A stretch of DNA of 64,000 nucleotides, from the IMG/VR virus record IMGVR_UViG_3300018080_000120. One strand, 5' to 3'. This DNA is from a virus (Duplodnaviria; Heunggongvirae; Uroviricota; Caudoviricetes). The notes beneath the pieces were generated by a model, which saw nothing but the letters and a program-made list of their open reading frames with translations, did no database searches and was not told the DNA's origin. The position numbers were made by a program, and so were the translations under genes. How positions within the stretch are numbered: position 1 is the first letter of the stretch; every line of letters begins with the position of its first letter. Shown in pieces: positions 32,517 to 64,000 of this stretch.

Positions 32517-32530
32517 TTTTGGAGGAAAAA

Positions 32531-33091: not shown

Positions 33092-33092
33092 A

Positions 33093-34847: not shown

Positions 34848-34883
34848 GGTGCGGCTCATGCCCGCTAATGGAGGGATAATAAA

Positions 34884-36738: not shown

Positions 36739-36745
36739 GGTTAAA

Positions 36746-37057: not shown

Positions 37058-37075
37058 GGAGGAGCTAAGGGGCAA

Positions 37076-37249: not shown

Positions 37250-37261
37250 AGGAGGAATAAG

Positions 37262-37570: not shown

Positions 37571-37571
37571 A

Positions 37572-38149: not shown

Positions 38150-38158
38150 GGAGGCAAA

Positions 38159-38876: not shown

Positions 38877-38878
38877 AA

Positions 38879-39214: not shown

Positions 39215-39224
39215 GGAGTAAGCC

Positions 39225-40637: not shown

Positions 40638-41019
40638 TATGTTGAAAGCGGCTCTTAAACTTGTGCGAACTTTTATACGGCTGTTATTCAAAGCTGTTTA
40701 TCTGTCTCTAAGGAACAGAATTTACAAATTGTTAGCGCGTTTTCTCATGAGCAAGTATTTTCTGTTCCTGGCGAAAATCTATTATTCAACAAAATGGGTC
40801 ATACCATATAATAGAGCTAAAGTCTGTATGGCTTATCGCTTGTACGAAGGCAGCGAACTTTATCGGCAGCGGTGCATTCAAGTAAACCCGCATTTTGCTG
40901 AAGAGTCCTTTATAACTTGCAAGGGATATAACTATTTCAGGCACAAACTTACTAAGATGGACAAGTTGAAAGCTTTGGTAATTCCTTTCAATTATTGCTC
41001 GCCGCCACAGGAGGATTGA
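40609..41019 (+). CDS. hypothetical protein
   Basis: SD ggaggg 5 nt upstream; track ORF from 40597. Confidence 0.5.
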   Translation: MKSILRSILDMLKAALKLVRTFIRLLFKAVYLSLRNRIYKLLARFLMSKYFLFLAKIYYSTKWVIPYNRAKVCMAYRLYEGSELYRQRCIQVNPHFAEESFITCKGYNYFRHKLTKMDKLKALVIPFNYCSPPQED

Positions 41020-41023
41020 TATT

Positions 41024-41227
41024 ATGTCAAAAGACTTGGTCGTCATTGATCCCAAAGTAATAGCAAAAACAATGGTAGATAAATTTGAATTCGACTTTGA
41101 TCAATTAAGAGAAAATGAGTGTGATGGTTGGTCTGATGCAATAATAGACGCTATGCAATATCTTTATGACATCGAAACAAAGGTTTACGAGCAGATGAAA
41201 TCGATATATCTCGGGAGTGGAAAATGA
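41024..41227 (+). CDS. hypothetical protein
   Basis: 67 aa. Confidence 0.45.
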   Translation: MSKDLVVIDPKVIAKTMVDKFEFDFDQLRENECDGWSDAIIDAMQYLYDIETKVYEQMKSIYLGSGK

Positions 41228-41412
41228 TAGAAATAGACGGAAAGATTCATGATAAATATTGTCCATTTCATCATATGCCTTATTTCTCTGGAGATGGATG
41301 TCCTAATTGCCGTAAATTAAGTCCTTCTGTAAAAGAAAAGATTCCTTTAGCAATTCGTATGTCAAATAAAGAAAAGAGGCTTAAAGATGTTCAGGAAGTA
41401 TCCGGAAATTGA
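41224..41412 (+). CDS. zinc-ribbon protein
   Basis: CPFHH...CPNC. Confidence 0.45.
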   Translation: MIEIDGKIHDKYCPFHHMPYFSGDGCPNCRKLSPSVKEKIPLAIRMSNKEKRLKDVQEVSGN

Positions 41413-42355
41413 GAATACTTACAATAGAAAGTTCATAGATAAGTTTATCTATTTGTATCCACAACTTCTTAAGGCACATTATGTGATCTATGAGAAGCTA
41501 CATGGTAGTAATGTACAAATTATCGTTCCCAGTAATGGAGATTTTCAGTTAGGTAAGCGCCACAGTCTAATTGAACCCAATGAAAACTTTTATGGTATAT
41601 GGGATACTATAAAACGTTATTCTCAGCCTATAAACAAAATCTCTGAATATGTGAAGAGATGTGGTTATTCCTATATGAATTACTACTGCGAGTATTTTGG
41701 TGGCGATGGTGAAAGAGAGCCAAGGATCCAAAAAGGAGTAATTTACAACCCTCTACAACAGATTAGATTTTTCGCTGTGGCGATTGAGGGTAGACTTCAG
41801 CCGCCCATAGTTCTTGAAGATATTTTTGACCATTTAGGGCTGAAAGAATTGTTAGTACCAAAAATAGGTATAATAGAAGGCTTGGATGCTGCTTTACATA
41901 TAGATGTAAATATGACTACTTTAATTAATCCTTACATTGAGGATAACTTTTTGGAAGGTGTGGTCATCCAGCCTCATACCAGAACTTTCGTAGATAAAAC
42001 TGGTAAACGTTTCCTTCTGAAGAAAAAACATCCGAAGTTTGAAGAAAGGGGAAAAAGGAAGAAATCAAAGCCAGTAGTTAATGATTTAGACGAAAAGATC
42101 ATTGGTCGGCTTCATGAGATATTTCTTGGATATCTAAATGAAAATAGGCTGCAAGGAACATTTTCTAAGGTCGGAGAAATTCAGGACAAATCCGAGATGA
42201 GCAAGTACATCGAATTTACGATAAAAGATGCCATCAAAGATTTTGAAAAAGATTTCGGCGATGAAATGGATGAAGCTGGGTATAGCCGCTTAGAAAGGAA
42301 GCGTATCTACAAAGGGGCAGGAGTTATTGTGGAAATGCTTAAGCAATATTTATAG
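41387..42355 (+). CDS. ATP-dependent RNA ligase (Rnl2-like)
   Basis: EKLHGSNVQI = ligase motif I (KxHGxN as in T4 Rnl2 KIHGTN); NFLEGVVIQP (motif IV), FLLKKKHPKF (motif V). Confidence 0.7.
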   Translation: MFRKYPEIENTYNRKFIDKFIYLYPQLLKAHYVIYEKLHGSNVQIIVPSNGDFQLGKRHSLIEPNENFYGIWDTIKRYSQPINKISEYVKRCGYSYMNYYCEYFGGDGEREPRIQKGVIYNPLQQIRFFAVAIEGRLQPPIVLEDIFDHLGLKELLVPKIGIIEGLDAALHIDVNMTTLINPYIEDNFLEGVVIQPHTRTFVDKTGKRFLLKKKHPKFEERGKRKKSKPVVNDLDEKIIGRLHEIFLGYLNENRLQGTFSKVGEIQDKSEMSKYIEFTIKDAIKDFEKDFGDEMDEAGYSRLERKRIYKGAGVIVEMLKQYL

Positions 42356-42364
42356 GAGAGAACA

Positions 42365-42655
42365 ATGAAAAGAGCAGAAAAATCAATTCCAAGATTTAGT
42401 GGTACATTGTGGAAAACAAAGATATTTTTCAAAGCATTTTGGAAACATATTATTACGGGTATATTAATACTTCTATTTTTTCTGTGGACACTTGTGAGCA
42501 TTGTTCATAGCATTTCGTCTATTAATAGACAAGATGTCATCGATGGCTCAGCCCGAGCTGTGGTAAAAACTGAAAAATTCTTTGAAGATCTAAAAACAAA
42601 AGTAGATGAATTAAGAAAGGAGAAAAACGATGCAGATAAAAACTATGGGAAGTAG
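42365..42655 (+). CDS. membrane protein
   Basis: TM helix ITGILILLFFLWTLVSIV. Confidence 0.5.
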   Translation: MKRAEKSIPRFSGTLWKTKIFFKAFWKHIITGILILLFFLWTLVSIVHSISSINRQDVIDGSARAVVKTEKFFEDLKTKVDELRKEKNDADKNYGK

Positions 42656-43259
42656 AAGTAAAATGGCGATACTGTGCATATCATACCTGGTATTAATTCT
42701 GACCATTTCGCTCAATTTAGGATGTGCAGGCATGCAATATCAGGCTCCGCAATTGACCACAAAGTCTTGTTCGGAGCTATTTTCGTGGGTAAAGAGTGTC
42801 ATGCCACCGGTTTTCGACGAGGGTTTTGATGAAGTTCCTGAGGTTTACATAGTAAGCCGTGACGAGATAAGAGAAAGGATGGCCGATGCAATAGACAGTG
42901 ATCCGCTGTTCAAAAAGTGGGTAGAAAAATATGGTCGCAAAAGTGCAGAAGAAATGCGCGCTGCTACAATCGAAAACGTCGTCACTCTCTGTCATATGAC
43001 AACATTGAAAATATATGTGGTTGATGGCTTAAGTCCATGCCAAACTGAAACCCAAATTGCCTATGGAATGGCTTACTATCTCATGGTTTCCAAGTATGGA
43101 AGAGGAGATGATTTGTCTTTTGGCCAAGCTTTGATGAGACGGATGTATTATGGAAGAATATCCACCATCATAAAGATGGCTTATTTTCGAACTTTTTGTG
43201 TGAAAGTGGAGACTTCTAAGGAGCCTTCGAAAGAAGCGGGAGAAGGCGATTACATATAA
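42630..43259 (+). CDS. lipoprotein/secreted protein
   Basis: signal MAILCISYLVLILTISLNLGC. Confidence 0.5.
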   Translation: MQIKTMGSRSKMAILCISYLVLILTISLNLGCAGMQYQAPQLTTKSCSELFSWVKSVMPPVFDEGFDEVPEVYIVSRDEIRERMADAIDSDPLFKKWVEKYGRKSAEEMRAATIENVVTLCHMTTLKIYVVDGLSPCQTETQIAYGMAYYLMVSKYGRGDDLSFGQALMRRMYYGRISTIIKMAYFRTFCVKVETSKEPSKEAGEGDYI

Positions 43260-43468: not shown

Positions 43469-44782
43469 GTGTTTGTAATACCGCCCGGATTACTTATAAA
43501 TAGTAATGTAAATGACATAATATTGCCACTAGATTATTTTGGCATACATCTTGAGGATTTCATTGCCAAGCCTATTAAAGTCTGGATGAATAGAGCTCTT
43601 GATATCGAACCGGAATGTTTTGGACAATTAATGAACCTGGCAAATCTGCCGTTCATTCATTCTCATGTATCTCAGATGGCTGATGGTCATAAGGGATATG
43701 GTATGTCTATTGGCGGTGTAATTGCCACAAAAGATGTGATAATTCCTAACGCAGTAGGAAAAGACGTTGGGTGTGGTATGTTGGCTTTCATGTTGACTAA
43801 TCTAACTTTAGATGATATTATGCCCCGAAGAGAAGACATTGTTGCAGAAATTCTCAAAAAGATCCCGGTTGGTTTTGATCACAGAAAGAATCCTTTCCGA
43901 ATGAAAGGATACATCATGACCAAAATAAAGAAGGAGATATTAGAGAGAAGCGCAATAAATGGTATCGGCCATCCCAAAAAGCCTGAGCCTCCTGTTTTTG
44001 GAAAGGAAAAGGAAAGAATAGAATATCAAACTGCAACCCTTGGCGGAGGGAATCATTTTATTGAAATTCAGAAAGACGAAGAAGGCCATCCCTGGATAAT
44101 GATTCATTCAGGAAGTCGTAATTTTGGCTCCAGAGTATGTGGTTATTACGACAAAATTGCCGCAGATATAAATGATAAATACTATTCTCAAGTGCCAAGA
44201 AAATGGGAGCTTGCATTCATACCGAGAGAAGATCCTTTGTTCAATTATTATTGGTATGACATGCAATGTGCTTTGTATTTTGCCTATCTAAATAGGTTAT
44301 ATATGCATTTTGTGATTGTGGAAGATGTATTACCTGCCATATTCGGCAAAAGGACAGGATATACTGCACCTATTAATATCCATCATAACTATGCGTCTCT
44401 TGAAAATCACTTCGGGAAAAATGTGTTCGTCCACCGGAAAGGTGCGACCCAAGCAAAGAAAGGACAAACTTGCATAATACCTGGATCAATGGGTACAAAT
44501 AGTTATATTGGAAAAGGTTTGGGGAACAAAGATTCATTCGAATCTTGTTCTCATGGATCTGGTAGGGCTCTTCCTCGCAATAAGGCTTTGAAGAAGTTTA
44601 CCAAAGAACAAGTTCTTGCTTATTACAAAGAAAGAGATATTGTGCTGGGTGTTAAGGATCTTGAAAAGATCGCAGCTGAATGTGATTGGGCTTACAAAGA
44701 TATCAAGGACGTAATGAAAAATCAGGAAGACCTTGTAAAAATTGTCCATGAACTGACACCAGTTGCAGTCGTCAAGGGATAA
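43469..44782 (+). CDS. rtcB: RtcB-family RNA ligase
   Basis: IPGSMGTNSYIGKG, CSHGSGR, VFVHRKGAT, GGGNHFIE match RtcB conserved motifs. Confidence 0.85.
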   Translation: MFVIPPGLLINSNVNDIILPLDYFGIHLEDFIAKPIKVWMNRALDIEPECFGQLMNLANLPFIHSHVSQMADGHKGYGMSIGGVIATKDVIIPNAVGKDVGCGMLAFMLTNLTLDDIMPRREDIVAEILKKIPVGFDHRKNPFRMKGYIMTKIKKEILERSAINGIGHPKKPEPPVFGKEKERIEYQTATLGGGNHFIEIQKDEEGHPWIMIHSGSRNFGSRVCGYYDKIAADINDKYYSQVPRKWELAFIPREDPLFNYYWYDMQCALYFAYLNRLYMHFVIVEDVLPAIFGKRTGYTAPINIHHNYASLENHFGKNVFVHRKGATQAKKGQTCIIPGSMGTNSYIGKGLGNKDSFESCSHGSGRALPRNKALKKFTKEQVLAYYKERDIVLGVKDLEKIAAECDWAYKDIKDVMKNQEDLVKIVHELTPVAVVKG

Positions 44783-44808: not shown

Positions 44809-45270
44809 ATGTATTACACATACGATGAGGCTTTGAATAGAATAGAAGAATTCATGATGAAAAGTGGTCTTCGATATTTCTGTACGAAGGTTTGTAAAGG
44901 CGCTTGCTGTTCTGGTTGTTATGAAAGTGATAAGGCATGCCATAAAAATGAAGGCCGGAGATTATCATGTTCCATTTTTCTTTGCTTGCAATTGGTCAGT
45001 ATAGCATTTTCTTCCGAAGAAAGAAATGAGTTTCTCGAAGTGAAAGGCCATTGCTTAGATGTGATTGACAGGAATTTAACAAAAGGCAGTCAATATTTTG
45101 ATGTACATACAAAGACATTACAGAACAAATGTAAATTTAATTCTGCTGTAATAGACAAACTGGAACAAATAAATACTTCCAAAGTCAAATATAAAGTAAT
45201 GAGTATGAGAGCACTTCTTAATAGGATGGCTGAGCGCGCTCTATGGAAGAAGAGAAAAAATGAAGCATAA
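44809..45270 (+). CDS. Cys-rich hypothetical protein
   Basis: CKGACCSGCYESDKACH. Confidence 0.5.
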   Translation: MYYTYDEALNRIEEFMMKSGLRYFCTKVCKGACCSGCYESDKACHKNEGRRLSCSIFLCLQLVSIAFSSEERNEFLEVKGHCLDVIDRNLTKGSQYFDVHTKTLQNKCKFNSAVIDKLEQINTSKVKYKVMSMRALLNRMAERALWKKRKNEA

Positions 45271-45826
45271 AATAATAACATTAATGATAATAGCGGCAAT
45301 TATTTATTCTTCTGCCGCTGCCGCACAAAACCTGGAAGTGATTGTGCCTGATTATAAAGTCAGTGCTTTAACACAGGCTATTATTGATTTACATCCAAAG
45401 ATAGATTCGGTGATTGCAAATAAAATTGCTTATTGTGTTATGTCAGAGTGTACAAAGAAAGATCTTGAACCCGCACTCATAACTGCATTAATTTACGTTG
45501 AATCCACTTTTAATCCACTGTCAGAAAGCAAAAAGGGAGCATGTGGATTAATGCAAGTTCGATACTCAATTTGGAAAGAAACTGACATTCTGATTAAGAA
45601 CAACGTAACTTCACGAGATCAATTATTTTGGATAGAAGCCAATATAAAGTGTGGAACAGACATCTTTCTAAGATATTATGAAAGGGCGGAAGGGGATATA
45701 GGCAAAGCTTTATACAGATATAATACTGGCAAAAGCTTGCCTGGTAAAACTAAACCTACAAAGATAAGGTATATAAATAAGGTGGTATATACTGCCTATA
45801 TTATTTTGTCAAAAATAGGAGGTTAA
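45260..45826 (+). CDS. lytic transglycosylase (SLT domain) with signal peptide
   Basis: ESTFNPLSESKKGACGLMQV = SLT catalytic motif (E-S...GLMQ). Confidence 0.85.
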   Translation: MKHKIITLMIIAAIIYSSAAAAQNLEVIVPDYKVSALTQAIIDLHPKIDSVIANKIAYCVMSECTKKDLEPALITALIYVESTFNPLSESKKGACGLMQVRYSIWKETDILIKNNVTSRDQLFWIEANIKCGTDIFLRYYERAEGDIGKALYRYNTGKSLPGKTKPTKIRYINKVVYTAYIILSKIGG

Positions 45827-45832: not shown

Positions 45833-47122
45833 GTGATGAATTTCGGAAACTTAAACAGAAAGTTATTAAGGAAGGTTTGGGAAAGGGAGATGGAATTTGC
45901 TATGTTAGGAGGAGACCCTGAGTTCTTTGTTGCAAATAAAAAGGGCAAAATTCTTCCAGCGGACAAATTTCTTCCAAGTAAATATAAACCTTACAAGGTA
46001 AATGCGATAAGTGATTCAAAAGACAAAGAATGGCAAAAGAATCGCATTTATTTTGATGGCATTCAAGCCGAAATGGCGGTAGCGCCATGTACTTGTAGAG
46101 AAGATTTGCTATCTAATTTCTATAATTGCTTGAGAGGGGCAGAAAGAAAGATTGGAACCAACCAGATAATTCTGAAGCCTTCGGTTAAAGTTGATTTCAA
46201 AACCATCGAAGAGGCTGACCCCGAAGCGAGGATATTTGGGTGTGACCCTGATTTTAATGCGTATACCCTTACTCAGAATACTCCAGAAATGGATGCTTCT
46301 CGTCATCCATATCGATATGCTGGCGGGCACATTCATCTTGGTATAATTAAAAACTATCTTGAAGAGATCCCAGAAAATCAACGCGTGATAGCAATGGAGC
46401 CTGAAGGGCATATTCGTCTCGTGAAGTTCCTGGATGTTATGGTTGGTATTCCTGCTTTGTTGCTTGATAATGTACCTGGATCAAAGAGGAGAAGATCAAA
46501 ATACGGTAAGGCTGGTTGTTTCAGACCAACACCATACGGTATAGAATATAGAACTTTGAGCTGTTGGTGGCTTAAGTCGCCCATTACTGCGTCCTTAGTT
46601 TATGGCCTCGCAAGAATGGCATGGAGTCTGTGCATACAAAAGCTGGACGAAGAAGTAAGAGAAGCCGCAGGATGCGCTGAGGAGGATATCAGAGGAATTC
46701 TTGATTCTGGTGATGTAAAAGCTGCCACAAAATTGTGGGAAAATCATTTAGGTCCTCATATAGCTGGTATGTATAGTGAAAGTGAAAATCCCCTGCATAT
46801 AGGAGCATTCACTTCTCCCGATTATGCTTATTTGGACCCCAAATGGGAACCGTTAAAAGGAAGTAGACCCAGTCTTCTAGCTGGTAGAGCGTTAGACCCA
46901 AAAGAGGATGGCCTTCCAGTCTTCACTCTTGCAGCTTTTGAATATATGAGGAAGAACGGAATTCACAGTGTCATAAATGAAGATGTCAAGACAGAATGGG
47001 ATATAGATCAGAGAAGAGCTTTAGAAGCTCCAAACAGCGGAATGGTTGAAGGCTTATATGAAAAGCTACGCTTTCATCCAGATTTCCATAAATTCCAAGA
47101 ATCTTTTCTTGGAGCATTTTAA
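45833..47122 (+). CDS. glutamine-synthetase-like amidoligase superfamily protein (paralog A)
   Basis: LGGDPEFF N-terminal metal-binding acidic motif, YAGGHIHLGI (HxH), shared with 62027 product (GCDPEFFL, FHIHFGLP, ELRP). Confidence 0.4.
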   Translation: MMNFGNLNRKLLRKVWEREMEFAMLGGDPEFFVANKKGKILPADKFLPSKYKPYKVNAISDSKDKEWQKNRIYFDGIQAEMAVAPCTCREDLLSNFYNCLRGAERKIGTNQIILKPSVKVDFKTIEEADPEARIFGCDPDFNAYTLTQNTPEMDASRHPYRYAGGHIHLGIIKNYLEEIPENQRVIAMEPEGHIRLVKFLDVMVGIPALLLDNVPGSKRRRSKYGKAGCFRPTPYGIEYRTLSCWWLKSPITASLVYGLARMAWSLCIQKLDEEVREAAGCAEEDIRGILDSGDVKAATKLWENHLGPHIAGMYSESENPLHIGAFTSPDYAYLDPKWEPLKGSRPSLLAGRALDPKEDGLPVFTLAAFEYMRKNGIHSVINEDVKTEWDIDQRRALEAPNSGMVEGLYEKLRFHPDFHKFQESFLGAF

Positions 47123-47140: not shown

Positions 47141-47410
47141 ATGAAAAGAGTGATAGTAGGACTATTAACAAAAGGTCAGGTGCTCACGGTAGGAGAAACG
47201 GCTTATCAGGGCCTCGTAATAAAAACCATCCAATATCGGCAAAATGGGCAGGATAAAATAAATGTTGGTACTCCAGGATATCGTGTTGAGATGGCCGATG
47301 AAAACACTTCATTGAATTTGTTCGTGCCAGAAAGAGATACAGAAGGTGCTCTGTTTATTGAGGAGAAAACCAAAAAGGGGGATGAAGTGGAGGTAGCCAG
47401 TGCAGATTGA
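47141..47410 (+). CDS. hypothetical protein
   Basis: 89 aa. Confidence 0.5.
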   Translation: MKRVIVGLLTKGQVLTVGETAYQGLVIKTIQYRQNGQDKINVGTPGYRVEMADENTSLNLFVPERDTEGALFIEEKTKKGDEVEVASAD

Positions 47411-48155
47411 TAAAAAACACAATGTAGTTATTTTAAACAATGACTATTTATATGCAGGGCCGTTCGAAGATTCTGCGAATATCTCATTTCATATAGACGA
47501 TATTGTTCCTGGTAAAACAGACCTGGTTCTTTTTACAGGCGGCGCTGATGTCCATCCAATGCTCTACAAAGGAAGAGACTGTGGCATCTCAGCGACCAAT
47601 ATTGGAAGGGATGGTAAAGAAAGGCACATCTTTAACTTTTGTAAAAAGCATGGAATAAAAATGACCGGAATCTGTAGGGGATTTCAGTTCCTAAATGTAA
47701 TGTGCGGCGGGTTCATGTATCAGCATATAAATAATCATGGTGGCTGTTGCCATCCAGTGAAATTTCACGATGCAGAATTTATCGTGACTAGCACTCACCA
47801 TCAGTTGGTGGGTCTTGGAGAAGGATCTATTCCTATGGCATGGTCATCGGAACGAAGATCTAACGTGTATTATGGTCCTCAAGGAAATAAGGTTTCTCCG
47901 CCAGAAAGAGAGATGGAGGCTGCAATATTTCCTGAAGAAATGGCGATGGGTGTGCAGTACCATCCCGAGATGATGTATATCAATGAAGAAGGTAGAATAC
48001 ATTACGAAAAGATGATAAATGACTTTATCTGTTTAGAGATGAGTGATTTTGTCCAAAAATACACCAAAATCAATGGAGGAAAAAGATGGCTCCAAAAGAT
48101 ACGGAAGGCGATGTCAAGAACGAAGCCATTGAGGTTGTCTCAGAAGAGCAATTAA
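47400..48155 (+). CDS. class I glutamine amidotransferase-like / gamma-glutamyl hydrolase (peptidase C26, COG2071) protein
   Basis: GICRGFQFLNVMCGG (nucleophile Cys), VTSTHHQLV, GVQYHPE (His-Glu). Confidence 0.85.
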   Translation: MQIDKKHNVVILNNDYLYAGPFEDSANISFHIDDIVPGKTDLVLFTGGADVHPMLYKGRDCGISATNIGRDGKERHIFNFCKKHGIKMTGICRGFQFLNVMCGGFMYQHINNHGGCCHPVKFHDAEFIVTSTHHQLVGLGEGSIPMAWSSERRSNVYYGPQGNKVSPPEREMEAAIFPEEMAMGVQYHPEMMYINEEGRIHYEKMINDFICLEMSDFVQKYTKINGGKRWLQKIRKAMSRTKPLRLSQKSN

Positions 48156-53090: not shown

Positions 53091-56000
53091 TTGGGAGAAA
53101 ACATTCAAGGCAGGACAGAGAGTTTGGTTAATGACATAAAATGTGAATTTAACCGACAAAAGGAATATCTTAAGTCCAATGCTGAAATGGATCTTCAAGT
53201 CGCTGATGATCTGCTGAAGATAACTTTTAGCGACGGTAATATCTCTCAAACTCTTTCTATTCCTCTTCCTACTATAAATGAGAAAGGACTTAATCTCCTA
53301 AACAATAACGATGTAACCAGAGTGATGTGTGATTATTGGTTGGAGAGAGAACAAAAACGCTTGAATTATCACGATGTTATCCGAGTGATATTGTGTGGTG
53401 AAATAAATGAAGTAATGCCACATAGGTCAAGTATGGGATCTCTTCTGAGTCGAGTAATAAAAGCATTTAGTCAGAACGCAGTACCATATATGGTCAATTC
53501 TATTCAGCGACTCGTCAGTGAAATTGTCAACGTAATGCCGCTTCATGAAACGGACATGAATAGTTGGGCAATGAATCATCGATTGATAATTATAGACCCA
53601 TTATTTAACGCCCTAACTGATCCAAATGACAGGCTTGAATATCAAGTCGAAAAGAACAAAAAGTATTATAAAAAGTTTGGATGGAGTACAATCGGCCTAT
53701 CTGAAGGAGTCTTGTCCGATAAAAACTTCATTCTAACAACTGATCTTAGAAAACTGACTCCATATGGATGGTATCATAATCCGCAGAGAAATCTTTATTC
53801 CACTCTTGGAATGAAAGGTGATGAGCTTCCAAAAGTAAGATCTCGATCTGAACACGAGCTCATCAAAAGAGGTATTCAACGAAAAGGATGGAATCTTGTC
53901 ACTGCAATAATTGACACTCCATTGGTATTTGAAGACCAAATTCTGGTTGACAAAAGACATGCTGGTCTTTTTCATACTGTGGAAAAAAGATTTGTCGTTT
54001 ATGGCGATAAAATAATGATTAAAAAGGGCGACAAAATTTCTACAGACGGCGTTCTCGGGATATCTAATGACAATGAAAAAGTTCGGATGACATTGAAATG
54101 CGATGAAGCTGAAATTACAGATGTCAAGAAAGAACTGGCAAATGTCGGCGGCGAAGAAGTGGTAACGACTGTTATTAAGGTCAAAGGTAAAAGATATTTC
54201 CGGGATGGCACCAAGTTTTCCAATCTTCATGGAAATAAAGGAATTGTTCGTATGGTAGATCTCGGTTATGCAATAGACCCGAGAGATGGAAAGAAAGTCC
54301 CGATTGATGTTATGATTTCTGCCACATCCATTAACAAAAGAGCCAACTTCGGTCAAATACTGGAAGCTCTGTCCAGCAATCTTATTCCTGAGGATGCAGA
54401 GTATTTGATAATAGAAGATGATCATCAAACTAATAGAACAAAAGTGGAAAATGCTCTGGAAACTGCTGGATTTCCAAAAGATGGTACGTGGATGATTGAT
54501 ACTTATTGCGGTGAACATTCTGCAATAGTTGGCAAAATGTTTTGGGGAGTGACCAAAGATCCAGAAGACCAATTGTGGGAGGGTAATCGAACTCTTGTTA
54601 CAGATAATCGAGAATTGAGAACTTCTGGGCTCAAATTTAGCCATGTTGAATTTAAGGCTCTTACGACTCGGTTTGGCCCTCAAAACGCTGTCACTAAAGA
54701 AATACTTTCGCATGCTCAAGGCATGGAAGTTCTTCACGATGAGATAAAGATTTTGAAATCTGCTCATGGAGAACTGCCAGACAACCTTCCTGAAATAGAT
54801 GCTTCTAATGTGGATTTTGTAGATAATAGCAAAGGGATATTTCACACCGCGACGGAAGTTGCTGGAACAGTTGTGGATGAGAGCTTCATGCCTGATGGAT
54901 TCATTCTTAAATTACCTTGTGATTTTCAGGCAATTGTGAATAAAAAGAACCCTGACCATTTCACTTGTGGAATGCCTCAGGAAATAATTGACCCTGAAGA
55001 AAAGAATGTATATCAATATAATAAAATATTTATACCAAATGCTTTGCTTCGTAGATGTTGGAGGCATCCATCTGGTAAATGGGGACTGAGTGTAACGGGG
55101 TCCCTTATAAATCGAATTATAGAATGGTGCCATCGATTCAAAGCAAGCGGTGATGTAAATGACCAAGTGGTCTTAATGAGAGTAATTGCCAGCTATTTTC
55201 GCAATATTGCAAAAATGATGGGGTCCAAAACTGGCGAATTGAGTACTTATGGAATGGCCGTCCGATATCCTTATTCTACTCGAGCAACTGCTGCACTATC
55301 TGATAATTTGCCAAGAGACACAATCGAAATTCATAGGGACATGGCGAACCTATTGAAGGTTAAGACTGGTGATATAGTCATAGCTGAAAGATTTCCCTGT
55401 CTTGGATTTATGTCCATTCGACCACAGTTTGTTAGAGTAACAGACGATCCGCAATGCAAATATGTGATAAGAGTGAGTGGAAATAGTCTGGTATCCATGA
55501 ATCTGGATTTTGATGGAGATACTCTATTTCTCGCAAGTCTTCATACTCCACAAGCAAAAGAAGCGATGCGAAAGGAATTGACTAATTCGAATACATTGTG
55601 CAAACAAGTAATCGAACAAATGAATGCAAAGAAAGTGCCTCAAACAAAGGAAATGAATCTGGATGGCTTCGAAATTCGAGTCTTTCCGCCGCCAACTAAT
55701 GAAGAACATGCTCAAATAGTGAGAAATGCGACTGGTGTGAAAAGCCATACCGGGCCGGTTATCGCACTTGCTTATAATCTCATGCGGATAGTAGAAAGAA
55801 ATGTGCCTTATTCTGATAATACTCAGCATGTTAATCTTGAGGTTCTTCTTGACTTCCTTGGTAATACTGTTTTTAAACAGAAACATGGTATTAAATCCTT
55901 GCAGGAAGAGGCAACAGATGCCATATGCTTGGCCGATGCGGAAAGAATGGTTGAGCTGGGATTTGAAAGAAGCCCAAGTGAATTATTGTGCAGATTGATT

Positions 56001-56390
56001 AAAGAAGAAGCGAAGTCGATTGGAGTAAAGGACCTAAAATGGTATTATAAAACAGCAAAGGAAAGAGGCTGGAGTAAGATAATAAATCTTATCGTCAGAA
56101 AGAAGAATAAAGTATACTTTGCTACTCGATCTACTCTCGGCCCCTTTAATCTGCTGGAGCATCTAAAAGTAGGTCCCGCTGATTTGCCAAGTTTTATGTT
56201 GAGTTTGATTCTAAGAAAAGAGACAGAAGATATCGAAGAAAAGCTCAATCTAAGGAAATTCGAAAGAGCGGAAAAGCATCGAGAAGCTGTGCTTTCTGCA
56301 TTCAAGGGCGTCTATAGAATAATGTCGGACTATATTGATAATATGATGACGCCTAAACCACAAGCAATGAGCGGCTCTTGCTCGGCCTAG
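53091..56390 (+). CDS. single-polypeptide two-barrel DNA-dependent RNA polymerase (fused beta-like and beta-prime-like catalytic modules; TTG start)
   Basis: beta-type: KFSNLHGNKGIVRMV and PIDVMISATSINKRANFGQILEAL (cf. GRHGNKGV...[22 protein letters not shown]); beta-prime-type: ERFPCLGFMSIRPQ and MNLDFDGDTLFLASLHT (cf. NADFDGDQM); SD aaggagg. Confidence 0.8.
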   Translation: MGENIQGRTESLVNDIKCEFNRQKEYLKSNAEMDLQVADDLLKITFSDGNISQTLSIPLPTINEKGLNLLNNNDVTRVMCDYWLEREQKRLNYHDVIRVILCGEINEVMPHRSSMGSLLSRVIKAFSQNAVPYMVNSIQRLVSEIVNVMPLHETDMNSWAMNHRLIIIDPLFNALTDPNDRLEYQVEKNKKYYKKFGWSTIGLSEGVLSDKNFILTTDLRKLTPYGWYHNPQRNLYSTLGMKGDELPKVRSRSEHELIKRGIQRKGWNLVTAIIDTPLVFEDQILVDKRHAGLFHTVEKRFVVYGDKIMIKKGDKISTDGVLGISNDNEKVRMTLKCDEAEITDVKKELANVGGEEVVTTVIKVKGKRYFRDGTKFSNLHGNKGIVRMVDLGYAIDPRDGKKVPIDVMISATSINKRANFGQILEALSSNLIPEDAEYLIIEDDHQTNRTKVENALETAGFPKDGTWMIDTYCGEHSAIVGKMFWGVTKDPEDQLWEGNRTLVTDNRELRTSGLKFSHVEFKALTTRFGPQNAVTKEILSHAQGMEVLHDEIKILKSAHGELPDNLPEIDASNVDFVDNSKGIFHTATEVAGTVVDESFMPDGFILKLPCDFQAIVNKKNPDHFTCGMPQEIIDPEEKNVYQYNKIFIPNALLRRCWRHPSGKWGLSVTGSLINRIIEWCHRFKASGDVNDQVVLMRVIASYFRNIAKMMGSKTGELSTYGMAVRYPYSTRATAALSDNLPRDTIEIHRDMANLLKVKTGDIVIAERFPCLGFMSIRPQFVRVTDDPQCKYVIRVSGNSLVSMNLDFDGDTLFLASLHTPQAKEAMRKELTNSNTLCKQVIEQMNAKKVPQTKEMNLDGFEIRVFPPPTNEEHAQIVRNATGVKSHTGPVIALAYNLMRIVERNVPYSDNTQHVNLEVLLDFLGNTVFKQKHGIKSLQEEATDAICLADAERMVELGFERSPSELLCRLIKEEAKSIGVKDLKWYYKTAKERGWSKIINLIVRKKNKVYFATRSTLGPFNLLEHLKVGPADLPSFMLSLILRKETEDIEEKLNLRKFERAEKHREAVLSAFKGVYRIMSDYIDNMMTPKPQAMSGSCSA

Positions 56391-58666: not shown

Positions 58667-60020
58667 AATAAATGAATGGTTAATCAACGAACTGACTTTT
58701 AGCAATCCAAAATACGAAGAAGCAGTAAAATATGGCCGATATACGAGAAATATTCCAGAATTTCTAAAATTATATTCAAAAACGCCGAATGGTCTGTTCG
58801 TTCCCCGTGGATTTTTGCAAAAAATCGAAAAAAGGTTATTTGGAAAAGGGCATAATATTGAAATCGTTGATAGTCGAGTATTAAACGATCCAATAGACGT
58901 AGATTCTCTTATTAGTTTGCGTCCATACCAAGAACCAGCAAAATATGATTTATTGGAAAATCCGAATGGTATGCTCATCGCTCCTGCCGGATCTGGCAAA
59001 ACAGTTCTCGGATTAGATGTTTTTGCGACTCTCCGCCAAAAGCTGTTGTGGCTGACCCATACAAAAAGATTAGCTGGACAAGTGATAGACCGAATTTTAG
59101 GTTCTGAAGAAAATCCTCCGCTTTTGGGCAATATCACCAAAGACGACATAGGAATGCTCGGAAGTGGTAAATGGAAAATTGGCAACAAAGCGACAATAGG
59201 AATAATTCAGACTTTAGTACGTAGATTGGAAATGTTGCCAGAAATTGGTCGAGAATTCGGATTAGTCATAGTCGATGAAGCACACCATGTTCCAGCAAGC
59301 ACCTTTTTGAAGGTTTTAGGTTATTTTTCCGCTTATCACTTATATGGATTGACAGCTACTCCATATCGCCGAGACAAACTTGAGAACATCATGTTTGCTA
59401 CCCTTGGCGGTAAAAACGCGGAAATTCAAAGATATTCAGTCAAAAAGGAAAAAGGAATAATCACTCCAAAAGTGATCGTAAAGGAAGTCCCCGCACCAAT
59501 TCACGAAGGTAATGATTTCCAATATATCCTTCGAGAGTTGTTGATACCAAATGAACACCGGCTTCTTTTAATAGGAATAGACGTTATAAATGAAGCTCAT
59601 GCCGGAAATTGCTGTATCGTGATAAGTCTGCGAAAAGAGTATTGCGAAATGCTCCATGACATAATAAAAAGAGCATGGGACAAAACTGGCATTGCAACAG
59701 GCGATTATTCCGACAAACATAATAATGCCCAGGTGGAAAAACTGGAAAATGGGGAAATAACAGTTTTAGTAACAACTTTCGAATTGCTTGGTGAAGGGTT
59801 TGACGTTAAAAAGTTAAATCGCGGATTTCTCGCTCTACCGTTCAGAGAGAAAACAAGGGTGGAGCAGGCGGTTGGCCGAATTCAGAGAACTTGCCCTGGT
59901 AAGAAAGATGCGTTTATCTACGATTATGTCGATTCAAATATCGGAATTTTAAAGAATCAATTCCGTCATAGAGCCTATACCTACAAAAAGTTGGGTATGG
60001 AAATAATAGTAGGGGGATAG
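58617..60020 (+). CDS. superfamily-2 DEAH-box helicase
   Basis: LIAPAGSGKT (Walker A), VIVDEAHH (DEAH), GLTATPYRRD (motif III), QAVGRIQR (motif VI). Confidence 0.8.
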   Translation: MRIIIDNRIKLLDLPPEINEWLINELTFSNPKYEEAVKYGRYTRNIPEFLKLYSKTPNGLFVPRGFLQKIEKRLFGKGHNIEIVDSRVLNDPIDVDSLISLRPYQEPAKYDLLENPNGMLIAPAGSGKTVLGLDVFATLRQKLLWLTHTKRLAGQVIDRILGSEENPPLLGNITKDDIGMLGSGKWKIGNKATIGIIQTLVRRLEMLPEIGREFGLVIVDEAHHVPASTFLKVLGYFSAYHLYGLTATPYRRDKLENIMFATLGGKNAEIQRYSVKKEKGIITPKVIVKEVPAPIHEGNDFQYILRELLIPNEHRLLLIGIDVINEAHAGNCCIVISLRKEYCEMLHDIIKRAWDKTGIATGDYSDKHNNAQVEKLENGEITVLVTTFELLGEGFDVKKLNRGFLALPFREKTRVEQAVGRIQRTCPGKKDAFIYDYVDSNIGILKNQFRHRAYTYKKLGMEIIVGG

Positions 60021-60022
60021 AA

Positions 60023-60232
60023 ATGAAAGAAGATTTCGAAAAATATAAAAATTCAAATTTTGCGAAGTGCCCTTTATGTAATTCACGTATAATAGGCACA
60101 CGTGCTCCTTTTAAAAGACGGGGCAAAGACGAAGTTACATGGCAAATGCATTGTTTTTTATGTGGACATTATTGGCATGAAATATACAAAATGGTGGATA
60201 TTGAATTCTTTTCTGATGAAGAAGAGAAGTAA
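60023..60232 (+). CDS. zinc-ribbon protein
   Basis: CPLCN...CFLCGH. Confidence 0.5.
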   Translation: MKEDFEKYKNSNFAKCPLCNSRIIGTRAPFKRRGKDEVTWQMHCFLCGHYWHEIYKMVDIEFFSDEEEK

Positions 60233-60234
60233 TT

Positions 60235-60420
60235 ATGCCTAAATTTCAAGTGGTGAGAGTATGGGATGTTGAGGTAAAAAATGCTCCAGACGCAGTTGCA
60301 AAGACTAGGAACTGGAAACACCATACAACTCGTGCTTACAAAAAAGGCGGAGAAATGGAAAAGCAAGAAAAATCCGCCTTATTGAAAGCACTTGACATAA
60401 TAATAGGTGAAGAAATATAA
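60235..60420 (+). CDS. hypothetical protein
   Basis: 61 aa. Confidence 0.45.
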   Translation: MPKFQVVRVWDVEVKNAPDAVAKTRNWKHHTTRAYKKGGEMEKQEKSALLKALDIIIGEEI

Positions 60421-60461
60421 CTACCGTGGTCAAACGGAAAAAGGAGGAGAAAAAAAACAAA

Positions 60462-60932
60462 ATGAAAGATTCCAAAAAAATGACACAAGGCCAAAAAAGT
60501 TACTTGGTGACAAGAATCAATGGTATCATGGAAGAAAAGATAAAGGGAATTGTGGAAGAGTATGGGTATTCTGTACTTCCCCATCAGCCACCGCCGGGAT
60601 GGCCGAAGGATCATGTTGTAGATGGTGAAATTATTAAAGCGGTTATAAAGGGCAAAGTAGGTCTTTTACCTAAGAAGAAAGTAATAGAAAACCTTAAGAA
60701 AAAGGTTACCACTCCTGGCCACCTGATATTAAACAATGCAGATTTTCTCGATATGGAAGCAGTAAAACTTTTCAATATCAGCAGACGCACTGAAAATCTT
60801 GTCAAGTACAACAAAGTGGCAAAAAGAGTGAAGGCCTTGAAGGATGCTGCTCTCGCTTTAAAAGATAAAATAATGTTTGATGGAGAGGTAGCTCCAAAAC
60901 TTCTCGCAGACTTCGAAGCACAAGAATTCTAA
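60462..60932 (+). CDS. lysine-rich hypothetical protein
   Basis: strong SD aaaaaggaggag; track ORF from GTG 60426. Confidence 0.5.
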   Translation: MKDSKKMTQGQKSYLVTRINGIMEEKIKGIVEEYGYSVLPHQPPPGWPKDHVVDGEIIKAVIKGKVGLLPKKKVIENLKKKVTTPGHLILNNADFLDMEAVKLFNISRRTENLVKYNKVAKRVKALKDAALALKDKIMFDGEVAPKLLADFEAQEF

Positions 60933-60939
60933 GATCATC

Positions 60940-61125
60940 ATGGTCGAGAGAAAAAATCGGAGGGAAAAAATAAAAATGATATTAATCAATGGTCCTTATG
61001 AGGGTCATCCTTCCAATCCAGAAGGAAAGACTATCATTGTCACTGAAAACAATGGTACCACCCATGCAATGACAGAGGATGAATTTATCTTATATCTTCA
61101 AGGGAGAAAAGATGGGATCATATAA
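60940..61125 (+). CDS. hypothetical protein
   Basis: 61 aa. Confidence 0.45.
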   Translation: MVERKNRREKIKMILINGPYEGHPSNPEGKTIIVTENNGTTHAMTEDEFILYLQGRKDGII

Positions 61126-61996
61126 TGTAGCGTGTTCCGTTTCAAACATAAGCATTGGGCCGGGGGAGAGGATAGCGTATTTTCCATTAAGACCTAACCA
61201 ATATGCAAAAGGATTTGAAGGTGGGCCAGCGGACGGTAATAATACACTCATACATACTAATTGTTACTATTATCCTGTAACTTTGCCTATTTTTGGTACC
61301 TACGATGACTATGGCGGAATAGAAAACATTGAAAAGAATTTAAACACTTATATTCTTGAGAAGTATTTCGGGCAAGTAATTGAAGTCATTGCGAATATAC
61401 ATCGCGGAGAAGGTATCCCGAAAATAACTTCCGGAATGTTTGTTCACCGGGATATTTTTGACACTCTCGTCAATAAATGTGCAAAGGTAGATGAATTCGG
61501 AAGAAAACACATCTTAATGTATAATAGTTCTGAGAAGAATATAGATAAAGAGTTGTCACGAGAGTTCGATGAATTCGCTGCATCCATTCGAAAAGCGAAG
61601 GAAAGAGAAGCAGAATTTTCTTCACAGCTGAAAGAGAAAACTCGCCTTGGCTGGGAAATATGGATTGAAAATTGGAAAATATTCAACTTTCGAGACTATC
61701 CTGTGTTCCGTGACATTTATCTACCGCATATAGAAAACGGAGATCTAAAACAACAGCTAATACAATTCGTGAAGTTTGAAACGGGTTTATTCGCAACAAA
61801 TAACTTTTATTTTCCAGCGATGAATGGATACCAATGTGGAAATGTCTACGCCAGCAGATATCTATATCAGAAAGCATATAAAATGATGCGAAACGAAGTT
61901 TATTCTCGGCGCTGGAGAAATTTTTTTAAAGATCCAATTGATATGTTCATATGGAGAAATAAAAGGCGACTAAAGAAGTTGATAGGAAAGGGGTAA
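61112..61996 (+). CDS. hypothetical protein
   Basis: SD agggagaaaag-ATG. Confidence 0.5.
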   Translation: MGSYNVACSVSNISIGPGERIAYFPLRPNQYAKGFEGGPADGNNTLIHTNCYYYPVTLPIFGTYDDYGGIENIEKNLNTYILEKYFGQVIEVIANIHRGEGIPKITSGMFVHRDIFDTLVNKCAKVDEFGRKHILMYNSSEKNIDKELSREFDEFAASIRKAKEREAEFSSQLKEKTRLGWEIWIENWKIFNFRDYPVFRDIYLPHIENGDLKQQLIQFVKFETGLFATNNFYFPAMNGYQCGNVYASRYLYQKAYKMMRNEVYSRRWRNFFKDPIDMFIWRNKRRLKKLIGKG

Positions 61997-62026
61997 AAGG
62001 AGGCAAGAGGTGAAAGCGAGGTAAAA

Positions 62027-63235
62027 ATGAAGCTTAAAATTAAGGCATCGAAACTGATGTCTAAGAATAAATCTGTCTTGGGATCAATGGAAGATAGGTT
62101 GATTCGTATTCCAGCAGGTCTAAGAGAAGAATTAAATATCAGAACAGGATCTTTTTTGAGACTGAAACAAAAGGGTGGTAGAGAAGCGGTTTTACAGGTT
62201 ATGATTTCTTATCTCGAAGATGCGCTTGAAGATGAAATGCAGGCTTATGTAAGTAAGGACACACATAATTTATTAAAGCTGTCCAAAATAAGTCTGGTAG
62301 ATCCAGCTGATGATATTTTAGTTGGGTGTGACCCCGAATTCTTTTTAGTTGACCTAAAGACAGGTAGAACCCGACCTGCATCCCATTTCTTTCCATATGT
62401 AGGAAAGTTGGGGAGTGATTGTGGTTTGGCAGAACTTCGACCAAGACCAGCTTATTATGAAAAAGATTTAACAGCAAATCTATTAGAGTTAATGGATAAA
62501 GCTTACAAACGTATAGCTGATAGAGTTCTGTATCGAAAAGAAGATCTTGCAATGATAGCTGCATCGCACTTGAATGAAGCATCAGCAGGATTTCATATTC
62601 ATTTTGGTCTGCCCTCAATATTATTAGATGAATCGGATATATCAGGTAAGTTACTGAAAAATATGTCTTATATATTAGATTATTATGTAGGCATTCCGGC
62701 AATTATGCCTGAAGGATCAGAGGACTGTAGAAGAAGGGTATCTGGTTATAGTCAGTATGGAAAACCAGGCGATGTAAGAGCAGATCGCATAACATTGGAA
62801 TATAGAGTTCCCGGCGGACATTTGCTAAGACATCCAGTTCTAACTGCTGGTTTATTAGGTATAGGTGTAGTTGTAATGAAAGATATGCTGAGTCGGATAA
62901 AATTATATTCAAATGAATATAGAAACAAAAATATATTCTATGAATATGACCAGTTAAGAGATTTATATCCTAATTTACCAGATCGGGTGGAGATTTACAA
63001 AAGCATAGTGTCTCCAGATACAAAAAACGCAATTCGTCATTTGGATAATATAGTTGATGATTTATCTAAAATGATAGGATTTTCTGAAAACTCAGAAGCC
63101 GTCTTGAATTATTTTAAATATGTATTATCTTATATAAGAGGAGAGAAAAAGTTCGGCGGCAATTTAGCAATCAATTGGAGGTTATTTGATGAGAAACAAC
63201 CGGAACAAGTGGCGTTTTTACAATCCGCCTTCTAA
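62027..63235 (+). CDS. glutamine-synthetase-like amidoligase superfamily protein (paralog B)
   Basis: VGCDPEFFLVD, AELRPRP, AGFHIHFGLP; paralog of 45833 product. Confidence 0.4.
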   Translation: MKLKIKASKLMSKNKSVLGSMEDRLIRIPAGLREELNIRTGSFLRLKQKGGREAVLQVMISYLEDALEDEMQAYVSKDTHNLLKLSKISLVDPADDILVGCDPEFFLVDLKTGRTRPASHFFPYVGKLGSDCGLAELRPRPAYYEKDLTANLLELMDKAYKRIADRVLYRKEDLAMIAASHLNEASAGFHIHFGLPSILLDESDISGKLLKNMSYILDYYVGIPAIMPEGSEDCRRRVSGYSQYGKPGDVRADRITLEYRVPGGHLLRHPVLTAGLLGIGVVVMKDMLSRIKLYSNEYRNKNIFYEYDQLRDLYPNLPDRVEIYKSIVSPDTKNAIRHLDNIVDDLSKMIGFSENSEAVLNYFKYVLSYIRGEKKFGGNLAINWRLFDEKQPEQVAFLQSAF

Positions 63236-64000
63236 ACCAGAACTTTCAGCGGAAGAAGTGAGATATTGGAAACAATCACTGAAAAAATTGCTGAAAGTCG
63301 GCATGGAATTTGAGTTCAATCTGCCAGAGCAAAAGAAAGGTGGATGTAAAGGAGATAACATTGATTGTGTGTGCTTAAATATAAAGAAAGGGTGCTGGGA
63401 AATTTGTCAGAGACTACCAGTTTGTAGAAAGATAAAATCCTATGACACATGTGATAATAAAAAGAAGACATGTACACCTGAAAAATGTGAGTCTTGCAAG
63501 AGTTTCAAGTTCAAATGTTTAGGAACAACATGTGCAGATTTTTGTAGTATGTGTTTCGCATGTGAAGAATTTGCCAAAAACTGCGAAAAATGCCCGAAAA
63601 GATTCGATCCCAACAAAGATCCGCGCCAGATAAGAGAAAATCTGGTCAAATATTTTGAACCAAGTCATAACTATGGACTTGTTAGCCCGTCTGGCGTTGT
63701 TGAAGTCAAAGAGGATGGGTCTTTGAAAGGTGACCGTGGGGCCGAAATCATAACTGTTGGTAGAAGAGTGGACTATTGGGAATTCTACGGCATGGCAAAG
63801 AACATCATTGATAGATTGACCGCTGACGGCGGATATCTAAATGAGAGATGTGGTTCTCATATGCATCTTTTGACCAGTTATTATGGTGAACATGATACTG
63901 GTGGTAGAGGAATGAATGAGATGGAAAAAGACATGCCAGAAATAATACTGGCCAATTTCCATCAGTTGTGTCGAAGATATCAAAATGCCATAACCTGGAT
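63189..64000 (+). CDS. amidoligase-like protein with Cys-rich insert (partial, continues beyond window)
   Basis: VGMEFEFNLPE (E-x-E N-terminal motif of GS-like amidoligases), CGSHMHLL (HxH), long CxxC-rich insert; not in ORF track because no stop in window. Confidence 0.45.
   Translation, partial: MRNNRNKWRFYNPPSKPELSAEEVRYWKQSLKKLLKVGMEFEFNLPEQKKGGCKGDNIDCVCLNIKKGCWEICQRLPVCRKIKSYDTCDNKKKTCTPEKCESCKSFKFKCLGTTCADFCSMCFACEEFAKNCEKCPKRFDPNKDPRQIRENLVKYFEPSHNYGLVSPSGVVEVKEDGSLKGDRGAEIITVGRRVDYWEFYGMAKNIIDRLTADGGYLNERCGSHMHLLTSYYGEHDTGGRGMNEMEKDMPEIILANFHQLCRRYQNAITW

Follow-up and report, generated by a model that had tools for sequence, protein, structure and literature searches.

An expanded phage amidoligase cassette encoding a divergent Amidoligase_2-like ligase with a Cys-rich insertion

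Cassettes that combine an amidoligase, a glutamine amidotransferase (GATase) and an ATP-grasp enzyme are widespread and occur in phiEco32, LUZ24-like phages and OM43 phages. [quoted passage not shown] The order in phage tf was PF14395, hypothetical protein, PF12224, GATase II, hypothetical protein, ATP-grasp and GGCT, and the UFV-P2 cassette is ordered in the same way (PMC3890496). According to a passage in PMC10580990, the amidoligase and GATase of phiEco32 were predicted by Iyer et al. 2009 to modify the cell wall. In the literature searched, no experimentally established product was found for the cassette predicted in 2009.

The window analysed here, a stretch of 64,000 nucleotides from a Caudoviricetes virus (IMG/VR record IMGVR_UViG_3300018080_000120), terminates within a conserved phage operon whose enzymes form amide bonds using ATP. 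Locus L002 was identical to the window base for base across the 11,974 bases compared. The cassette comprised the following genes, with positions past 64000 given as window equivalents:

62027..63235, + strand: COOH-NH2 ligase type 2 (PF14395), 402 aa; Pfam E 6.3e-24, 85.0 bits
63189..64838, + strand: Amidoligase_2-like ligase with glutamine-synthetase (GS) fold, 549 aa, assigned by profile comparison; the first 270 of 549 codons lie in the window (63189..64000)
64850..65668: Ntn glutamine amidotransferase, 272 aa, begins MCGI
beyond the window: hypothetical protein, 327 aa
beyond the window: 700-aa protein with an N-terminal Ntn-GATase domain, begins MCGI
beyond the window (L001:16752-18098): further PF14395 ligase
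beyond the window: RimK-like ATP-grasp ligase

The neighbours of the 549-aa gene matched GATase_6, PF14395 and RimK in Pfam and NCBIfam. When the 327-aa and 700-aa proteins were searched against PDB sequences, nothing useful emerged apart from the GATase domain. A type-2 ligase, an Amidoligase_2-type ligase, a Cys1 class-II GATase and an ATP-grasp enzyme were co-located, and the arrangement corresponds to the phiEco32/LUZ24/tf-type amidoligase cassette in an expanded form. Compared with the LUZ24/tf type, it held two GATase genes and an extra internal PF14395 ligase, and a third PF14395 ligase was located 16 kb upstream. The central ligase was far diverged, about 150 aa longer and carried a Cys16 insert. 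Altogether, four GS-fold ligases, one ATP-grasp ligase and two Ntn-GATases were counted. The gene order was identical in loci L004 and L005, where the 549-aa orthologs were about 50% identical. Adjacency of GATase and central ligase was not universal, as the two were about 2 kb apart in a relative lacking the insert, although this relative still had a pair of GATase_6 genes inside a 6-kb span. No similarity to any deposited phage was detected, either in DNA or at BLAST level in protein. The preliminary description had suggested a radiation of substrate specificity; the arrangement is not a local radiation but the conserved multi-enzyme cassette of LUZ24/tf-like phages.

Further relevant genes were located in the window:

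29935..30366, + strand: GGACT/AIG2-like gamma-glutamyl cyclotransferase; Pfam E 4.5e-7 among pooled window ORFs, position mapped through the L007-to-window offset
45260..45826, + strand: SLT lytic transglycosylase immediately upstream of the 45833 ligase; Pfam SLT E 1e-16
45833..47122, + strand: second PF14395 COOH-NH2 ligase type 2, 429 aa; Pfam E 2.8e-17, 63.2 bits; PHROG 3815 E 4e-44
47400..48155, + strand: Peptidase_C26/class-I GATase (gamma-glutamyl hydrolase type) downstream of the 45833 ligase; Pfam E 1.5e-18

The GGACT gene, whose equivalent in phage tf is tf_25, was present in the same genome but not adjacent to the cassette, whereas it lies inside the cassette in tf and LUZ24. A transglutaminase-like protease was encoded elsewhere in the window.

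The gene at 63189 overlapped the upstream 62027 gene by 47 nt, had a GGAGG 7 nt 5' of its ATG and was open up to the window end. In L002, the frame ran on to a stop at window-equivalent 64838. The partial ORF proposed in the preliminary description is therefore a genuine gene, with the same contig beyond the window giving an uninterrupted protein of 549 aa and no interruption of the frame seen past 64000. Its absence from the ORF list was correctly attributed to its running off the window, and the protein contained MEFEFNL (aa 39-45) and CGSHMH (aa 221-226) as claimed. It had no matches in Pfam, NCBIfam or PHROGs. PF12224 was not matched in Pfam by the 270-aa fragment (E up to 1) or the full-length protein (E up to 0.1), and a full-length construct without the insert matched nothing in Pfam at E up to 10. 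The best PF12224 score of any relative was 15.3 bits (P0173), below the gathering threshold of 22 bits. Among 50,697 GenBank phages, no match was obtained in megablast with 60000..64000 or in tblastn with either the 270-aa fragment or the full 549-aa protein.

The family affiliation was examined by profile comparison. In hhalign, the profile of the 549-aa family (A3) matched 22 LUZ24/tf-type amidoligases with a probability of 97.9% and E 4.8e-13 over 161 columns, spanning DGSL to E-x-R. Against tf_21 alone, which passes PF12224 with 24.9 bits, the values were 93.7% and E 1.9e-7. By this measure, the 549-aa protein is a divergent relative of Amidoligase_2/PF12224, and it has the glutamine-synthetase/glutamate-cysteine-ligase (GS/GCL) fold. 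The relevant features were, all within the window:

63306..63314, + strand: E40-F-E42, the E-x-E strand, predicted to bind metal and acyl-phosphate (alignments A1 and A3)
63327..63617, + strand: Cys-rich insertion, aa 47-143, with 17 Cys, 16 of them invariant
63714..63746, + strand: D176-G-S-L...G184-x-E186, aligned with DGSLR...E of PF12224-type amidoligases
63846..63866, + strand: R220-C-G-S-H224-M-H226, aligned with RCSTHVH of PF12224-type amidoligases

E40 and E42 were invariant throughout the family, including relatives without the insert. Across 33 divergent members, again including insert-less ones, E186, H224, E340 and R342 were likewise invariant and H226 nearly so; D176 and S178 were also kept in the 549-aa protein. 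We take E40/E42, D176/S178, E186, H224/H226 and E340/R342 to be the metal, ATP and acyl-phosphate positions of the GS/GCL fold. PF12224 enzymes such as gp21 of Pseudomonas phage tf share the motif series E-x-E, DGSL, E, RCxxHxH, KYxxxN and E-x-R and are also partnered with GATase_6. Unlike these, the 549-aa protein stayed under the Pfam threshold whether or not the insert was included, carried a Cys-rich insertion of 97 aa behind its first strand and continued after the aligned core with a helical and winged-helix-like region (aa 368-549) outside the profile-profile match. YbdK/GCS2 carboxylate-amine ligases, glutamate-cysteine ligase, PafA/Dop and glutamine synthetase showed 8-14% identity and no Cys-rich insertion at the same site. 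Substrates are not transferable from these enzymes to the 549-aa ligase.

The PF14395 ligases were separate from this family. PF14395 denotes the phiEco32-like COOH-NH2 ligase type 2, with a Pfam gathering threshold of 25 bits that was exceeded by the 62027 and 45833 proteins and by the ligase just past the window (91.1 bits). The 62027 and 45833 proteins were homologous in BLASTP (E 2e-9, 22% identity), and each was 38% identical to separate orthologs in related phages; 62027 orthologs occupied the equivalent position in L004 and L005. Judged from their sequences, the two are old paralogs. The motifs said to be shared were partly confirmed: DPEFF-type and HIH-type motifs were present in both (VGCDPEFF and AGFHIHFG in 62027, LGGDPEFF and GGHIHLG in 45833), but E-L-R-P was not, as AELRPRP of 62027 corresponds to AEMAVAP in 45833 with just Glu and Pro in common. 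Putative catalytic residues of 62027 were D102-x-E104, E136, H190-x-H192 and E258-x-R260, invariant in alignment A2. At its N-terminus, the 62027 protein had an additional conserved domain of some 95 aa, which yielded no match to the PDB in phmmer and a weak MazE/AbrB match in Pfam below the cut-off. The 45833 protein lacked this domain and had internal and C-terminal extensions, with all catalytic motifs kept. In tblastn against GenBank phages, 62027 matched a lone 76-aa stretch of Salmonella phage 7-11-type ligases (E ~1e-3).

The three proteins had been described as triplicated paralogs. This held for the 62027 and 45833 pair, which could be aligned, but not for the third protein, which found its relatives among the PF12224-type amidoligases. 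Between A3 and the profile of the PF14395 proteins (A2), hhalign gave E 0.17 with the E-x-R strand alone aligned, comparisons of the 549-aa family with single PF14395 proteins were not significant, and the 63189 protein had no PF14395 match in Pfam. A close paralogy with 62027 and 45833 was accordingly rejected. The PF12224-type and PF14395 profiles did not match each other either (E 0.24). In the PF14395 pair, the motifs D-x-E, E, H-x-H and E-x-R follow each other as their counterparts do in the 549-aa protein; the third protein has the same fold but is assigned to a different family.

The Cys-rich insertion, sketched in the preliminary description as a stretch of about 90 aa with more than 20 Cys in CxxC spacing, is real, but it comprised about 97 aa and 17 Cys, with CxxC spacing in 4 of 16 Cys-Cys gaps. 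Counted over the 270 aa inside the window, Cys totalled 19, and over the whole protein 22. It was located between the E-x-E strand and the following helix, which are directly joined in relatives of 420-450 aa. The invariant Cys were C53, 60, 62, 69, 73, 79, 88, 95, 100, 103, 110, 115, 122, 125, 132 and 135, giving a spacing skeleton of 6-1-6-3-5-8-6-4-2-6-4-6-2-6-2. Cys columns were 100% conserved, compared with 49% for the remaining insert columns, and the non-Cys positions evolve fast. Relatives had 0, 12 or 16 Cys, and the 12-Cys forms lacked one contiguous 4-Cys block. This series, together with the loss of four Cys as a block, suggests a clade-specific module of Cys4 metal sites, four in this protein and three in the shorter variants, with zinc as the most likely metal. 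The structure model of the insert was poor, matched no known fold and gave no confirmation of a zinc ribbon. The module emerges beside the active-site sheet and probably serves in acceptor or partner recognition and not in catalysis, because the insert-less relatives keep every catalytic residue. A conserved basic surface for nucleic-acid binding was considered and rejected, as the net charge of the insert was not conserved (mean +1, range -5 to +8).

Taken as a whole, the locus is likely to be an expanded amide-bond cassette with a GS-fold ligase that carries an inserted Cys4 module. The 549-aa enzyme would convert a carboxylate with ATP to an acyl-phosphate, which would then be joined to an amine or ammonia. 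The adjacent Cys1 amidotransferase might supply glutamine-derived ammonia, resulting in a carboxamide, or might trim a gamma-glutamyl handle in the manner of EgtC; the Ntn-GATase could be a peptidase or gamma-glutamyl hydrolase instead of an ammonia donor. The two PF14395 ligases and the ATP-grasp enzyme would add further residues, probably of glutamyl type, and the C26 hydrolase, the GGACT-like cyclotransferase and the transglutaminase-like protease could strip such residues. As the acceptor, the published prediction favours the host cell envelope.

The chemistry of the insertion could be different from zinc binding, with the Cys residues holding Fe-S clusters or forming a disulfide-knotted domain. 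This is unlikely, although 16 Cys would be enough for four Fe-S clusters and a radical-SAM gene was present within the window. A conserved CxxCxxC...CP ferredoxin motif was absent, and the single CxxCxxC run relied on the non-conserved C119. For disulfides, the family profile had solely insignificant matches among PDB sequences, all to disulfide-rich proteins, namely phospholipases A2 at E 7-9. Eight disulfides are disfavoured in an ATP-dependent enzyme expected to be cytoplasmic, for which no signal peptide was evident; by eye, the N-terminus was polar and not signal-peptide-like. The block loss of exactly four Cys fits Cys4 sites.

Other readings concern the acceptor. The cassette might hypermodify phage DNA by placing amino-acid or polyamine groups onto a modified base such as 5-hmdU, with the Cys-rich insert, together with the winged helix at the C-terminus, holding the enzyme on DNA. 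We regard this as quite unlikely. At the level of Pfam, no dUMP hydroxymethylase/thymidylate synthase, 5-HMUDK, aGPT-Pplase or TET/JBP was found in about 90 kb of the contig and near-identical relatives, a part of the genome with many ORFs lacking any Pfam match, and the insert had no conserved basic charge. To our knowledge, no base hypermodification has been reported for LUZ24/tf-type phages, which also possess the cassette. It is very unlikely that the 549-aa enzyme acts as a tagging ligase like PafA/Dop in pupylation; in such a scheme, a small protein or peptide would be linked via a glutamyl carboxylate to a host or phage target, which the Cys-rich insert would bind. The likeness to PafA/Dop was confined to the fold (8-11% identity), and sequence homology leads to Amidoligase_2 and not to PafA. 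A C-terminal Gly-Gly-Glu/Gln is the mark of Pup, and such an ending was present in none of the translated small neighbouring ORFs. More generally, the Cys16 insertion and the winged-helix-like domain might indicate a ligase that acts on macromolecules, amidating or glutamylating nucleic acids (DNA or RNA) or one specific protein of host or phage. This is speculative and rather unlikely; if true, the phage would encode a system for covalent tagging that resembles pupylation or DNA hypermodification in mechanism but uses an Amidoligase_2 scaffold equipped with a new metal-thiolate domain for recognition.

An amide-bond cassette with a Cys4-module ligase remains our preferred explanation. The locus defines a sizeable branch of the central enzyme that bears modular Cys12 or Cys16 inserts beside the active site. 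Insert-less, 12-Cys and 16-Cys forms constitute a natural series for testing recognition by the module and could give a handle on the acceptor of the cassette. The 549-aa enzyme belongs to this unannotated, metagenome-only branch of the central ligase, which goes undetected by Pfam, NCBIfam and PHROGs. The branch comprised more than 538 clusters when grouped at 90% identity and 244 when grouped at 50%. A profile from its family would annotate hundreds of 'hypothetical' phage proteins.

The amidoligase-like feature at the end of the window is real. From the ATG at 63189, located 7 nt 3' of a GGAGG and overlapping the preceding gene by 47 nt, the frame was open through base 64000 and encoded MEFEFNL and CGSHMH, matching the E-F-E-F and CGSHMH motifs first described for it. 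Three contigs were found by exact-protein look-up of the 62027..63235 product. The longer contig L002 (ENA ERZ27256796 k141_440059, 85,077 bp), identical to the window at 11,974 of 11,974 compared bases, carried the frame on to a stop at window-equivalent 64838; the gene is therefore not broken just past the window and encodes 549 aa. The version in the near-identical locus L001, P0001, which served as query in searches, showed 14 substitutions, all after residue 305. Every long ORF of the window was on the plus strand, consistent with an early or middle phage region.

Features of the window and its continuation
3282..4034, plus strand: transglutaminase-like/BTLCP cysteine protease (Pfam Peptidase_C93 and Transglut_core; core SGDCEDG...GHGWT)
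29935..30366: GGACT-like gene
45833..47122, plus strand: PF14395 ligase, 429 aa (LGGDPEFF, AEMAVAP, GGHIHLG)
47400..48155: Peptidase_C26 gene, flanking the 45833 ligase
In the window: SLT transglycosylase gene, flanking the 45833 ligase
62027..63235, plus strand: PF14395 ligase, 402 aa (VGCDPEFF, AELRPRP, AGFHIHFG)
63327..63617, plus strand: Cys-rich insertion, residues 47-143 of the third protein, absent from 420-450-aa relatives
First gene 3' of the third gene, same contig: class-II glutamine amidotransferase (GATase), 272 aa
Second gene 3' of the third gene: 327-aa protein
L001 14653..16755 (window-equivalent 66680..68782): 700-aa protein with N-terminal class-II GATase domain
Next after the 700-aa gene: further PF14395 ligase, 448 aa in L001
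Last in this downstream order: RimK-like ATP-grasp protein

The 62027 and 45833 products were related as proposed (BLASTP E 2e-9, 22% identity), scoring 85.0 and 63.2 bits with Pfam PF14395, 'phage phiEco32-like COOH.NH2 ligase type 2' (cut-off 25 bits). In the two relatives L004 and L005, orthologs of 62027 were 38% identical to it and other PF14395 genes 21-25%; judged from these identities, PF14395 duplicated long ago and each copy has been kept. Six of seven aligned PF14395 ligases carried ~95 additional N-terminal aa, a domain marked by the motif RLIRIP..R..L....G.FV.L (window 62027..62320, plus strand; equivalent N-termini of L001:16752.., L004:8796.. and L005:8848..), and the 45833 paralog was without it. 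This domain looks like an AbrB or CDC48-N-type beta-barrel; its MazE/AbrB Pfam match was weak and sub-threshold (E 0.012), and a phmmer search of the PDB gave no match.

Neither the 270-aa fragment nor the full-length third protein matched any model in Pfam, NCBIfam or PHROG scans, and an insert-deleted construct matched none in Pfam. PDB sequences searched with the family profile returned nothing significant, and tblastn against 50,697 GenBank phage genomes gave no match. Metagenomes held more than 538 homolog clusters at 48-75% identity, none of them named, and 244 clusters at 50% identity were present among 1.84 billion representatives. Foldseek against predicted viral structures matched phage proteins annotated as 'Amidoligase enzyme', among them one from Pseudomonas phage tf; gp21 of this phage passes PF12224 Amidoligase_2 (24.9 bits, cut-off 22). 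In profile-profile comparison the third-protein family matched tf gp21 (93.7%, E 1.9e-7) and an alignment of 22 LUZ24/tf-type amidoligases (97.9%, E 4.8e-13, 161 columns), with DGSL, G-x-E, RCxxHxH, KYxxxN and E-x-R aligned, but had no significant match to PF14395 proteins of the window aligned with orthologs (hhalign E 0.17). PF12224-type and PF14395 profiles did not match each other either (E 0.24). By these profile matches, the third protein is a deeply diverged Amidoligase_2 relative that shares the superfamily fold alone with the two PF14395 proteins. The preliminary description was correct in naming three amidoligase-like genes and overstated in calling them paralogs.

Among 33 divergent family members, invariant residues included E40, E42, D176, S178, G184, E186, H224, E340, R342 and D345, with H226, R283, Y319, N323 and H338 nearly so. 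We take the E-x-E ... E ... H-x-H ... E-x-R series to be the GS/GCL metal and acyl-phosphate site. The fold, conserved catalytic residues, Amidoligase_2 homology and cassette synteny of the protein are shown, and its enzymatic class is well supported. The homolog P0096 (52% identical) came from contigs reaching 327 kb and P0112 was deposited under a Patescibacteria MAG; either could be a hint on genome size or host, or a binning artefact.

The Cys-rich insertion was confirmed, with fewer cysteines (17) than the more than 20 first counted and CxxC spacing in only four gaps. In the 420-450-aa relatives the E-x-E strand runs straight into the helix preceding the P-S/T motif, which marks residues 47-143 as a true insertion. 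Sixteen cysteines were invariant across 29 homologs; Cys columns were 100% conserved, and non-Cys columns of the insert averaged 49% identity versus 67% for the remainder of the protein. Family-wide, the segment held 0, 12 or 16 cysteines, at times one extra, and 12-Cys forms kept the spacing skeleton and lacked one contiguous block (C88, C95, C100, C103). Independent Cys4 metal sites would produce this pattern. A domain built on disulfides only is less likely on that account, and also because an ATP-dependent enzyme that lacks an evident signal peptide is expected in the cytoplasm. As to the zinc-ribbon array considered in the preliminary description, CxxC spacing was limited to those four gaps and the insert-only structure model was weak (pLDDT 68.5, pTM 0.36). 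The net charge of +8 (Lys-rich) was not conserved among homologs. A 393-aa protein of an uncultured phage, A0A6J7X2B6, named 'LIM domain containing protein', matched the amidoligase model in the fold search (E 6e-4), so zinc-finger-type additions may occur on other phage amidoligases too.

Both GATases begin with MCGI, the N-terminal Cys being the nucleophile of class-II GATases. The 700-aa protein contained a long acidic low-complexity linker (D/E/S runs around aa 320-400 and 520-560), and its C-terminal ~150 aa had no detectable family. L004 and L005 kept the cassette order, with 549-aa orthologs ~50% identical. In 150-kb phage contigs, an insert-less relative of the third protein had a pair of GATase_6 genes inside 6 kb and no PF14395 gene closer than 10 kb, which leaves the GATase as the constant partner. 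Phage tf has the same order of PF14395, hypothetical, PF12224, GATase II, hypothetical, ATP-grasp and gamma-glutamyl cyclotransferase, as does UFV-P2 (PMC3890496). The cassette is of an already known, uncharacterised kind; what is new here is an Amidoligase_2-like branch, unannotated and seen in metagenomes only, together with the modular Cys12/Cys16 insertion that it carries. By function, the 3282..4034 protease may go with the amide-bond enzymes. Contig SRR21285571_3618, in other respects near-identical, had no called Peptidase_C26 counterpart and a 676-bp gene-free gap at 5463..6139, which could be gene loss or a pseudogene in a close relative.

From ATP and a carboxylate, the third protein would make an acyl-phosphate, which it would join to an amine or to ammonia. 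The adjoining Ntn-GATase may supply glutamine-derived ammonia or strip a gamma-glutamyl group as EgtC does, its EgtC-like similarity being weak (NCBIfam), and the remaining ligases would lengthen the product. As cited in PMC10580990, the only proposal in the literature, made for phiEco32, is a cell-wall modification blocking superinfection (Iyer et al. 2009). The SLT gene beside the 45833 ligase is compatible with this proposal. A role in DNA hypermodification, suggested by reported amidoligase and amidotransferase associations (PMC8989533) and by the winged-helix-like C-terminus of the third protein, was not supported by gene content, since no dUMP hydroxymethylase, 5-HMUDK, aGPT-Pplase or TET/JBP gene was found among Pfam matches over ~90 kb. 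Pupylation-like tagging is compatible with the fold but found no specific support.

Elsewhere in the window, the 1099-aa product of 53091..56390 (plus strand) had Pfam matches to RNA_pol_Rpb2_6 and, weakly, to RNA_pol_Rpb1_2, suggesting a single-chain beta/beta'-like RNA polymerase, either fused or minimal. The protein was conserved in L004 and L005 (1104 and 1130 aa), with a sigma70_r2-like gene downstream there. Just 5' of the first amidoligase, an RNA-repair cluster (39225..40637, 41387..42355 and 43469..44782, plus strand) comprised a CCA-adding tRNA nucleotidyltransferase, an Rnl2-type RNA ligase and RtcB, and probably counters host anticodon nucleases. NAD synthase and NAPRTase/NAMPT-like genes (25120..26037 and 26034..27221, plus strand) overlapped by 4 nt; with NADAR, DUF4326, YAcAr (SLOG) and Patatin matches among pooled ORFs of 1..43000, they resemble a toolkit for NAD/ADP-ribose salvage or for counter-defence. 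GC content was 45.8% in 1..4000 versus 35-40% over the remaining window.
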